Positions 54,135-57,100 of a DNA stretch of 64,000 nt are shown here, in pieces. The translations under genes and the position numbers were made by a program. The stretch is taken from NCBI GenBank assembly GCA_000165345.1, contig CM000433.1, forward strand, positions 576,001 through 640,000, read 5' to 3'. The notes beneath the pieces were generated by a model. The model searched no databases. It had not been told where the DNA came from and saw only the letters and a program-made list of their open reading frames with translations. Each line of letters begins with the position of its first letter. The first letter of the stretch is position 1.

Positions 54135-57100
54135 TTGGATACAAGTATTCTTTATTCACAAGAATCAGAAATGTCAAATATTTCAAATATAAGCAAAACA
54201 AATTACAATTTATATTATGTTTGGAGATATTTAAAACCAAATCACAAGATTTCATTCAGTAGAGACGAATATGGAAATAGTTACCCAATAGTGGTTAGAA
54301 TTCGAATCTTGAACGATGCTTTCGATCTTAATAATATTACAATGGATAAAGTTAATATGGAGGTAGTTTACCTTGGACTAAGTGAAAGAAATCAAGCAAG
54401 AATACCTTTACTAATAAAGACTGATATTATGAATAATCATTCATATTTGATTTCAATTTCCTCACGAGTTTTTATTTCAAACAATACAAGCAATATTATC
54501 AGATTAATACCAAATCCTAAGAATGTTGAAGATTTTCTAAATAATAATTTTTTCATCCCCCCAACAAGTAACAAACCAATTCTTGTTTCAAAATATAATG
54601 GAAAATTTTATGAGACTATTTCCAGAAAATTTATTGATAAAAATTATATTTCAAGTATATTAGACGAAGAAATTAATAAGACCAACTATAATAATAATGA
54701 TTATATTAATATTTTAATTCAATCAAATCTTTTCTGCAAGAATTTCAATCCTGACTTTTTTACACTCTATTTAAATCCAAATACGTATACATGCATGCCC
54801 ATGTGGACATCAATACCGGTATTGCATGCAGGCAGTAAGAATGACATGTTAAAATTCATTCCACTGCGCGCAGTAATAAATAATGTTTGGTTGGAGTCAG
54901 TGATAAGAAATAAAGAAGAAAGAAAAAATCGAGTTTCTATAAAAATACCAACGGATGATGAGAATAAGAATAAAGATATAGATGAAGAAGAGGAAGTCTT
55001 AAGGAATGATTTTTTAGTGGATAATGAGGAGTTATTGAGTGAATATTCGAGTATTTACAATCGTTTGAGTACATCTTCTGAGCAGATAGTGCAGAATAAA
55101 TGTTATAAGAAGTTGTTAACTACTAATACATCAGGAAAAAAGAAGAGTTATTATGGTTCAATCACAATTCAGTTAACAAGAAGATTACAATCGGGAGATT
55201 TGAATACAGAAAGTTTAGAGAATGGTATTGGTGGTGGTAGAAGTAGCAGTGTTAGTGGTAGTAATAATGGAAATAATAATACTGGTGAAAGTGGAGTTGT
55301 ATCAATATGTTCATCGATTTGTGAATATTTTCAAAAAGATACAAGAAGTAATCTCAACTCTTTCATGCTTGTTATTAAATTGGATATCCCTTTAATTATT
55401 GAGAATAATTTATTAATTCCTGTTCAGCTTTCATTCAATAAAGAAAAAGAAAAACATAGTAAAATAAATGGTTCAATAGAACATGTTCCAAATGATAGAG
55501 ATGAAATTAATAACAATGAAAGAATAAGTAATAATGGAAGTATCACGGGCCAAACACCAGGAAATAGTAATGATAGAATTGGGTCAGTTTTAGAAATATC
55601 AAAGACAGATAACCCTAGAGAAGATGAAGAAGGAAGTGAAGGAGAAGATGGAATTTCTGAGTTGATTGATAAAGTTATGTATATGAATGATCCCAATAGA
55701 TCAAATATTAATTTAAAAAATAATGAGAGAATTTTATTAGAATCTTTACCAACATCATTAAGTTTGAATATAATGGATATATCTTTTGGTAAGTTTTTTG
55801 GATTCTATAAATCTTCTCAGATTCAAATAAATTATAATTCAACAACAAAAGAACTTAATAAGGAAATTCTTGTTCCTTTAAAACTTAACAATGGATATAA
55901 GCTTATGCCAAATAATGATATTGCAAAAATTAGTGGTATTAGTGCTGTCATAACTAATGGATTTCTTCCAAGTTCTACTTGTATAAATGTTATGTTTGAA
56001 AATAATAGAACTGATTACATTTCCAAAGACTTTATTCCAAGACAAAAACAAGATTTTAATTATTATATGGATAATATTACCAGCCTAGATATCAAAACTT
56101 ATAATAAAGCTTATCCAGAATCTCAAGCTAATAATAATAATAATAACAATAATATTAATATTAATAATAATTTGGATATTTCTACTCCATGGAATGGATA
56201 TTATTGCAATGCATATAATACTTGTAAAATCAGATTAAATGTCTATGCTCCATTTTGGATTAATAATAGACAACATATACCAATTTATGTATTACAAAAG
56301 TCACAACTTTTCTCTAGATATAGATTAGGATCCAATGAATTTAAGATCCTTCCTACTAATAATGGAAAAAGTGATCTGGGTATTGCTTTAAATCCAGAAC
56401 TATCAAAGAAATGTCATTCTCCTTTTGTTCATATTGAAAGAGCTAATATTGTTGGAACTATTACTGTACCTTCAAAAAAATTCAATAATATTTCTCATTC
56501 TTTTGGTAATCATTTAAATTCAAGCTTGAGTAATCAAAATATTATTATAAGGGATATCATGTCAAGCAGTAATTTTGGATTAAAACTTGGATATTGTGTT
56601 ACAACTATTAACAATTTCTCCAAATCTCCAAATTTCATGATTAATATTTACAATAAATATATTATTGTTAATTATCATAACTTACCCATTTGGATACGAG
56701 AATCTAATAAGTTTGGAAGTTGGGTATATATTCCACCAAATATATCAATTCCTTTTCATCCATTGGATAGTAAAGATGTTTCTGTTATTGAAGTTACCTT
56801 TTTGGATCCAAAAATTATTGAAGAATATGAAAAAAAGTATCAAATCAATCTTGGTCATATTCCATATAAAACTTTACCTCTTTCTATTGACAATTTATAT
56901 GATATTCAAGTCAGATTAGTTTCTTCTTTGAATAATATTCCATTAATTAATACTAATAATAATCATGAAGAAAAAGAAAATATTAAAGATGATCAACTTG
57001 ATAATAAAATTGGAAATCTTCACTTTACTTACATTCTTTCATCAATTTCGATATATTCCATTAATTCATCAACATCTTACCAAATTAATATATATCCATC

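Follow-up and report, generated by a model that had tools for sequence, protein, structure and literature searches.

Do promoter-type sequence words that lie in frame inside a 15-kb gene of Cryptosporidium parvum form a regulatory DNA element, or do they simply follow from the peptide that they encode? The question arises in a 64,000-nt stretch of C. parvum Iowa II chromosome 5 (GenBank assembly GCA_000165345.1, contig CM000433.1, positions 576,001 to 640,000), hereafter the window, to which all coordinates below refer unless another record is named. The window has a GC content of about 28%, and its open reading frames (ORFs) are intron-poor and closely spaced. Within the coding region of a gene labelled VPS13, a first-pass annotation had pointed to a full set of promoter-like motifs. 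We lean, with moderate confidence, towards reading positions 54783-54833 of this gene as a selected cis-regulatory DNA element within coding sequence, formed by a dense cluster of putative promoter-type transcription-factor sites. Its words are intergenic-specific, its codons are unusual, and its silent sites are retained in the intestinal clade of Cryptosporidium far above the rest of the gene.

Promoter-type words inside the coding sequence

The cluster and its surroundings contain the following features.

54783..54833, unstranded: the constrained 51-bp element ACGTATACATGCATGCCCATGTGGACATCAATACCGGTATTGCATGCAGGC, equivalent to CP044418.1 652,595-652,645 in C. parvum IOWA-ATCC
54790..54799, unstranded: box 1, CATGCATGCC, with TGCATGC at 54792-54798, encoding T-C-M-P
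54800..54809, plus strand: CATGTGGACA, encoding (P)-M-W-T
54812..54823, unstranded: the palindrome AATACCGGTATT, with its core ATACCGGT at 54813-54820, encoding I-P-V
54823..54830, unstranded: box 2, a perfect TGCATGCA (the AP2_1 core), with TGCATGC at 54823-54829, encoding (L)-H-A
54864..54873, unstranded: the palindrome CTGCGCGCAG, encoding L-R-A

The words ATGTGGACA and ATACCGGT(ATT) stand between two AP2_1 (TGCATGCA-type) boxes. Four promoter-type words thus follow one another directly in 45 bp, which read CATGCATGC-c-ATGTGGACA-tc-AATACCGGTAT-TGCATGCA. The GC content of the 51-bp element is 49% versus 27% for the gene. Both TGCATGC boxes and the two palindromes AATACCGGTATT and CTGCGCGCAG lie exactly where the first-pass annotation had placed them, and its reading frame and the plausible in-frame peptide that it gave for the region, TYTCMPMWTSIPVLHAGSKN, are correct. 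Box 2 is read in a different register from box 1. On the reverse strand box 1 is GGCATGCATG / GGCATGCAT, which fits BGCATGCAH, and both boxes match the published consensus of an AP2_1 site ([T/C]GCATGC[A/G] or BGCATGCAH; PMC3734150). The definition also places such sites in non-coding DNA upstream of a gene; in each of the eight assemblies compared, the cluster lies in frame within an unbroken ORF. At the 5' edge of the element (54783-54791) we also noted ACGTGTATA/ACGTATACA-like words, which recur at about 2852.

The TGCATGCA word is the AP2_1 element, which is enriched upstream of about 1,000 genes and which two C. parvum ApiAP2 domains, cgd2_3490 and cgd1_3520, bind in vitro (PMC3734150, PMC4117751); cgd1_3520 is the orthologue of Plasmodium PF14_0633. 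The published motif surveys deliberately searched upstream non-coding DNA only, with coding DNA excluded (PMC4117751).

Within the window, TGCATGC has 31 strand-matches against 3.4 expected, a number reached by none of 100 shuffles. Twelve of the 13 TGCATGCA sites are intergenic, and the sole coding site is the one at 54823. The words GGCGCC and TGGCGCCA occur at intergenic sites only, while GCGCGC has four sites, three of them intergenic and the fourth at 54866. The word ATGTGGAC(A) is found at 2837, 8294 and 9851 (all intergenic) and otherwise only at 54801; ATGTGGATA, a variant of CATGTGGACA, is intergenic at 46873. Likewise, CCGGTATT/ACCGGT, the AATACCGGTATT-type word, is intergenic at 8332, 17100, 26913, 31168 and 41542 (the copies start at 8329/8332, 17100, 26913, 31165/31168 and 41542) and has one other coding match, at 24386; the 10-mer CGGTATTGCA of the cluster is common to the sites at 26914 and 41539. 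As recurrent intergenic words, ATGTGGAC(A) and CCGGTATT/AATACCGGTATT had not been named in the first-pass annotation; they emerged from side-by-side reading of true intergenic regions. The 25 motifs tabulated in PMC3734150 include neither ATGTGGACA nor (A)ATACCGGTAT(T), and a 2025 review does not list them among its motifs either.

We also scored windows by the log-odds of their 7-mers in intergenic versus coding DNA, with cross-validation such that no window was scored on its own counts. The cluster scored 40.9, the highest of 44,936 coding windows (the next reached 34.0) and above 97% of non-coding windows. The codons used are similarly unusual. They include CCG (3.8% of proline codons), which encodes the proline of I-P-V, the minor cysteine codon TGC (24% of cysteine codons), CCC, ACG and GGC. 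Under random synonymous recoding, in which the peptide was held fixed and codons were drawn from the window's own usage, both boxes and ATACCGGT appeared together with a probability of 1.75e-4, and the AATACCGGTATT/ATACCGGT part alone with a probability of 0.012. The cluster is thus confirmed as a real pattern beyond chance, and the earlier description of it as sharing the grammar of the intergenic promoters is borne out by the intergenic specificity of its words here and by its top 7-mer intergenic-likeness among coding windows.

Several further occurrences of these words were recorded. Intergenic ATGTGGACA words (ATGTGGAYA, at 2837, 8294, 9851 and 46873) and (A)ATACCGGTAT(T) words often lie 15-80 bp from TGCATGCA, and CCGGTAT-type words are present at 8329, 17100, 26913, 31165, 41542 and 62324. 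A second coding pair of GCATGC, at 29534 and 29559, lies 133-160 nt into the ORF 29401..30939 and encodes S-M-P and H-A, the same kind of amino-acid solution as at the cluster boxes.

Retention of silent sites among Cryptosporidium species

An exhaustive HMMER search returned three orthologue representatives, one being shown per 50% cluster; intermediate species (C. meleagridis, C. ubiquitum, C. felis and others) lie outside this coverage. At the DNA level we compared C. tyzzeri, C. ryanae, C. andersoni, C. muris and a syntenic Cryptosporidium lineage assembled in Logan (SRR31860986 contig 104521, 1-16141), referred to here as L003. Protein identity to C. parvum is 70% for L003, 54% for C. ryanae and 36% for C. 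andersoni and C. muris, and the C. tyzzeri protein is near-identical. The L003 locus has a GC content of 0.50, and its GC content at third codon positions is 0.68 versus 0.19 in C. parvum. Described Cryptosporidium genomes have 24-33% GC, far below the L003 locus. Its intergenic DNA still uses TGCATGCA, TGGCGCCA and CCGGTAT, and the pair of TGCATGCA and CCGGTAT found downstream of the gene is present both in L003 (15978/16041) and in C. tyzzeri (16106/16187).

The peptide framework FTLxxNPxxxxCxPxWxxIP is kept in all orthologues, including those of the gastric species C. andersoni and C. muris. The DNA of the element follows a narrower pattern. Positions 54783-54833 are identical to L003 at 48 of 51 sites (94%), compared with 57-61% in the 150-nt flanks and 65% gene-wide, and third codon positions match at 14/17 sites in the element versus 9/49 and 12/40 in the flanks. 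In the L003 flanks almost all silent sites have changed (AAT->AAC, CCA->CCT, TTA->CTT), and after GGC every degenerate codon differs; unchanged in L003 are ACG TAT ACA TGC ATG CCC ATG TGG AC- TC- ATA CCG GT- TTG CAT GCA GGC. All three L003 changes (54809, 54812, 54821) fall between the motif cores, and the silent sites within the cores are kept at 8/8.

Every base of box 1, with the minor cysteine codon TGC, is preserved in C. tyzzeri, L003 and C. ryanae; the box is lost in C. andersoni and C. muris (TGT CTT). The ATGTGGAC word is kept in L003, and C. ryanae reads TTGTGGACA there. The bases ATA CCG GT are kept in both L003 and C. ryanae, the latter having the full ATACCGGTATT. Box 2 is kept at synonymous sites in L003, where TTG CAT GCA GGC is identical, and in C. 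tyzzeri. Read as a phylogenetic footprint of an AP2_1 site, the alignment has both boxes in C. tyzzeri and L003, box 1 in C. ryanae, and neither in C. andersoni or C. muris. The sites that C. ryanae retains, CATGCATGCC, TGTGGACA and ATACCGGTATT with the rare codons TGC and CCG, are the only ones of their kind in its 14-kb coding region. A degenerate-pattern scan for the cluster in JGI metagenome contigs returned 0 matches.

The statistical test of this constraint considered only codons with unchanged amino acids, and the retention rate expected for each codon was taken from the remainder of the gene. Gene-wide, only 35% of the codons for the same amino acid are identical between C. parvum and L003. 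In the element, taken as a pre-specified region, 11 of 14 degenerate codons are identical to L003 (p=1.3e-4). In a 17-codon sliding scan against L003 and C. ryanae, the window 54786-54836 ranked first of 4,442 (p=2.1e-6, the next best being 1.1e-3), with z=4.90, a value reached by none of 2000 simulated gene-wide maxima. Silent divergence here is locally below the gene background, as in a synonymous constraint element. The orthologue comparison proposed with the first-pass annotation, which set conservation of the DNA motifs against that of the peptide, thus came out in favor of the motifs: they are conserved beyond what the peptide needs.

These numbers bear on the explanation that the cluster has no function: a conserved peptide, a patch of high local GC and chance would together have produced the motifs, and these would have been noticed only because they were sought. 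The total number of coding TGCATGC words (4 strand-matches in 46 kb) is indeed near compositional expectation, FTLxxNPxxxxCxPxWxxIP is conserved even in gastric species, M-W-T forces ATGTGGAC, the comparators are few, and when L003 alone is used, other windows, such as 50591-50641, also have p values of about 1e-4 to 3e-5. However, conditioned synonymous conservation ranks first in the gene at a value outside all simulated maxima, the L003 changes avoid the motif cores and the edges of the element are sharp, three lineages that differ greatly in base composition keep the rare codons TGC and CCG, and the joint codon choice has the low probability given above. We regard absence of function as quite unlikely. 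The window 50591-50641 itself has high synonymous identity to L003 (8/8 codons, p=3e-5, z=4.6); the protein is poorly conserved there, no motif is obvious, and C. ryanae lends no support.

Synonymous constraint alone does not separate selection on DNA from selection on RNA, and the selected feature could instead act in the mRNA, as a hairpin of the two complementary boxes, as a site for an RNA-binding protein (UGCAUG-type) or as a conserved pause at a domain boundary, caused by rare codons. A consensus stem of 13 pairs can form between the two palindromic boxes, a 121-nt RNA fold is mildly more stable than its shuffles (z=-1.88, 8/200 shuffles being as stable), and the stretch is rich in the C. 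parvum rare codons ACG, TGC, CCC, CCG and GGC. On the other side, the stem has no covariation (term +0.38), and in C. ryanae, where the loss of one arm breaks 3 pairs, box 1 and ATACCGGTATT are still present. A pause would predict species-specific rare codons, whereas the same bases are observed in AT-rich and GC-rich genomes. Upstream or non-transcribed DNA is enriched, in both orientations, for exactly these conserved words, and positions 54300-55300 match no Rfam family. A role in the mRNA is accordingly unlikely in our assessment, though it carries some weight.

The palindrome CTGCGCGCAG behaves differently from the rest of the motif set in which the first-pass annotation had counted it. 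It is unique in the window and present in C. parvum and C. tyzzeri only. Since L003 keeps the same LRAV peptide with other codons (CTT CGG GCG GTG), CTGCGCGCAG probably lies outside the constrained element. As a candidate E2F site it was rejected: no register fits [A/T][C/G]GCGC[G/C][A/T] (PMC12246861), and it is absent in L003 despite the conserved LRAV.

The host gene and its upstream promoter

Three features of the locus outside the cluster bear on its interpretation.

47111..62108, plus strand: the host gene, a single chorein/VPS13-like ORF of about 4,960-4,976 codons after correction of the N-run, its frame continuous in the aligned loci L001 and L002
53978..54009, unstranded: an N-run of low quality with one surplus base, seen as a 1-base gap in L001 and L002 relative to the window
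46531..46554, unstranded: the positive control, a footprint of the true upstream promoter with TGCATGCA (46531-46538) and the E2F-type TGGCGCCA (46547-46554), from a four-species alignment

As written, the window contains two ORFs at this locus, the second of which, from its ATG at 54171 to position 62105, agrees exactly with EAK87997.1/XP_626220.1. A further single N stands at 54134. By alignment, identity over a 20-kb stretch is about 99% both to a Logan assembly and to CP044418.1 of C. parvum IOWA-ATCC, and in each of these the first ORF runs in frame into the second. The false stop at 54017-54019 and the apparent second ORF result from the surplus base in the N-run, and the two-gene model of the locus is an artefact of that one base. 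The IOWA-ATCC annotation still has two models, QOY41716.1 (2294 aa, 'partial', without a stop codon) and QOY41717.1 (2645 aa), although no stop interrupts the ORF in its DNA. In CryptoDB the N-terminal model is CPATCC_0024650 (chr5 644,924-651,805; PMC12446620), in agreement with the coordinates of the aligned locus, and the host gene comprises this model and its neighbor. A newer record for C. parvum gives one protein of 4976 aa (KAL5368714.1, 'chorein/VPS13 like protein'), and a single protein of this name, of 4976-4989 aa, is also annotated in C. tyzzeri and Cryptosporidium sp. 43IA8. The first-pass position of the cluster, 650 bp into a second VPS13 ORF, holds for the window as written; once the split is recognized as a sequencing artefact, about 7.7 kb of a single ORF of some 15 kb precede the cluster, which stands very nearly at the midpoint of this ORF.

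The first-pass annotation had also offered an unrecognised intron or a mis-assembly near the N-run as the source of the motifs. On such a reading the cluster would be a true intergenic region, or an intron, between two genes fused by mis-assembly. The N-run and the apparent stop do lie 650-800 bp upstream in the window, and the two gene models of IOWA-ATCC would agree with such an artefact. Continuous ORFs refute this reading, however. Three independent assemblies of C. parvum type, and likewise five other species, have an uninterrupted ORF of 4,597-4,989 codons that passes through both the N-run site and the cluster. The motif region does not differ between the three C. parvum assemblies, and the encoded peptide is alignable across all species. 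Only one GT...AG span, 54785-54835 (51 nt), has an in-frame length, and its AG is missing in L003. We consider an assembly or annotation artefact extremely improbable as the origin of the cluster.

The VPS13 label of the host gene could be verified in part only. The Pfam family VPS13_N (PF12624) matches residues 20-201 with E=3.5e-18 and 65.3 bits, below the curated cut-off of 80 bits, and a precomputed VPS13_N match exists on the L003 orthologue. Pfam searches with the whole ORFs gave no match at E<=0.01. For the C-terminal VPS13 modules (VAB/SHR-BD, ATG_C, PH), no Pfam family at E<=1 went beyond chance level in the residues encoded by 54135-57134 and 59400-61200.

The gene's own upstream region served as a positive control. 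In an intergenic region of about 1 kb, compared across C. parvum, C. tyzzeri, L003 and C. ryanae, the sole conserved island is TTTGCATGCA (TGCATGCA) followed by GGCGCCAA. Judged by this alignment, positions 46531-46554 are a clean phylogenetic footprint of a predicted AP2_1 plus E2F promoter, and the bona fide promoter and the putative intragenic element carry the same kind of footprint. In the gastric species TGCATGC is absent from the upstream intergenic region as well as from the cluster, which fits a shared regulatory wiring that would be limited to the intestinal clade.

Two other parts of the window were noted in passing. The promoter region of the downstream DHH-family gene, at about 62243-62288, has a tandem TGCATGCATGCA and, 16 nt later, the inverted repeat TTACGTGGAAACACGTAA. 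The first ORF of the window (213..2426) lies in a GC-richer stretch (positions 1-2426, 0.44 versus about 0.28); its product is of low complexity and rich in serine, threonine and asparagine, and by eye it has a RanBP2-type zinc-finger-like motif (WACCKCSNVNFPRRFRCFKCG).

Possible roles and comparison with known systems

If 54783-54833 is a selected cis-regulatory element, the two boxes would be bound by the TGCATGCA-binding ApiAP2 factors cgd2_3490 and cgd1_3520, a proposal that follows from motif identity, and ATGTGGACA and ATACCGGT(ATT) by further factors. The bound complex would then act as an internal promoter about half-way along the 15-kb gene or, alternatively, would serve the gene's own AP2_1/E2F promoter as a docking or enhancer site within the gene. 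The element is possibly an internal promoter. Because the ATGTGGACA copy in the cluster is in sense orientation and such words mostly point downstream in the true promoters of the window, a sense transcript would be weakly favored: ATGTGGAYA-type words are directed toward the downstream gene at 8294, 9851, 46873, 37337, 14432 and 41507, and not at 31136 and 31202.

The orientation of ATGTGGACA, the sole directional word, also speaks against the alternative that the cluster is the promoter of a non-coding RNA transcribed antisense to the 5' half of the gene. The other three words, as palindromes, favor neither strand, and antisense transcripts are the commonest type of long non-coding RNA (lncRNA) reported in C. 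parvum, making up most of those annotated (PMC7840661, PMC12246861). No lncRNA entry, however, lies between genes CPATCC_0024620 and 0024720 in the set of Li et al. 2021, the table of which passes from Cp_lnc_212 (gene 0024620) to Cp_lnc_228 (gene 0024720). The antisense transcripts for which the first-pass annotation had suggested a check are thus not annotated at the gene in the 2021 C. parvum set. We hold an antisense promoter to be very unlikely. As a separate candidate, an overlapping or antisense ORF at the cluster was rejected, the only one present being an antisense ORF of 30 codons.

A number of observations weigh against a selected regulatory element, and in particular against an internal promoter. 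With L003 alone the scan gives z=4.18 and a family-wise p of 0.054, and the two-species statistic behind z=4.90 treats its comparisons as independent although both share the C. parvum branch. The informative comparators are three, L003, C. ryanae and the near-identical C. tyzzeri. The peptide itself is well conserved, and ATGTGGAC follows directly from M-W-T. C. ryanae has lost box 2 by amino-acid change (VLHAG -> VFSEI), so that this box is dispensable there, and C. andersoni and C. muris keep the peptide framework with none of the motifs, the whole set being absent in gastric species. No in-frame methionine common to C. parvum, L003 and C. ryanae occurs until 56067, about 1.2 kb downstream (one at 55365 is common to C. 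parvum and L003 only), and this gives no indication of a conserved N-truncated protein. For CPATCC_002464x-002467x, including CPATCC_0024650/60, Li et al. 2021 (PMC7840661 supplement) list no lncRNA; this check applies to the 2021 set and does not include the set of 766 lncRNAs based on the telomere-to-telomere assembly. Finally, sporozoite peaks from the assay for transposase-accessible chromatin with sequencing (ATAC-seq) are reported without AP2 motifs (preprint 10.1101/2025.01.17.633476). The earlier proposal of a promoter-like element inside a very long gene therefore stands in so far as the motifs are conserved beyond the peptide, and is weakened by the lack of a shared early methionine, of an annotated lncRNA and of conservation of CTGCGCGCAG.

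The relation between the two codes at this site also deserves attention. Motif-bearing and motif-less species differ in their amino acids at the cluster (L/M, M/T, L/V, IKR/LHA), which suggests that DNA signal and protein sequence may have constrained each other here. In its strongest form, a genuine internal promoter kept in intestinal species would split the 15-kb gene into two separately regulated units, and the binding code would have overwritten the protein code (L to M, M to T, L to V and IKR to LHA relative to gastric species). We consider this version doubtful, though worth stating. If true, it would mean that AP2-type promoters are able to operate inside the coding DNA of an ultra-compact genome.

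Gene regulation in Cryptosporidium is poorly understood, and a silent-site-selected cluster within a gene would show that exons of a 9-Mb genome carry regulatory information. Codon and amino-acid choice in conserved parasite proteins may then reflect signals at the DNA level. The analysis yields a precise 51-bp candidate and two candidate promoter words, ATGTGGACA and ATACCGGTATT, that are missing from the published motif tables (PMC3734150 and the 2025 review). We found no report of an intragenic promoter or an exonic regulatory element in Cryptosporidium in the literature.

The closest known system is the AP2_1 promoter element itself. The cluster has the same 8-mer (box 2), the same site on the reverse strand (box 1) and the same companion words as the true promoters of the window, and its cross-species footprint is like that of TGCATGCA in the gene's own upstream promoter. 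In contrast to these promoters, it lies inside an ORF about 7.7 kb from the start codon, and its binding is predicted. Intragenic start sites occur in other Apicomplexa, including the Plasmodium var-intron promoter and the internal transcription start sites in 5'-end maps of Toxoplasma and Plasmodium. They resemble the present case in that a promoter-grade motif cluster stands within a long transcription unit; they differ in being defined by mapped RNA 5' ends, whereas the C. parvum cluster is recognized from its sequence and is exonic rather than intronic.

Mammalian genes reportedly contain synonymous constraint elements and exonic transcription-factor sites ('duons'), as described by Lin et al. 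2011 and Stergachis et al. 2013. Like them, the cluster is a short coding stretch in which sharply reduced silent-site divergence coincides with transcription-factor motifs, and its codon and amino-acid choice appears to have been shaped by the DNA. Unlike them, it is situated in a 9-Mb, almost intron-less parasite genome, is compared across 3-4 species, and is linked to its factors through motif identity. If it is a genuine internal promoter, it would be the first documented exonic regulatory duon in an apicomplexan.

Within C. parvum, internal monocistronic transcripts have been described in polycistrons, so that more than one transcript is produced from one long unit (preprint 10.1101/2025.01.17.633476). 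The polycistrons consist of separate ORFs with E2F-rich spacers between them and have no AP2 motifs in sporozoite open chromatin, while the cluster lies in one ORF and has AP2-type motifs and no E2F site. They nevertheless provide a precedent, in the same organism, for several transcripts within one transcribed unit.

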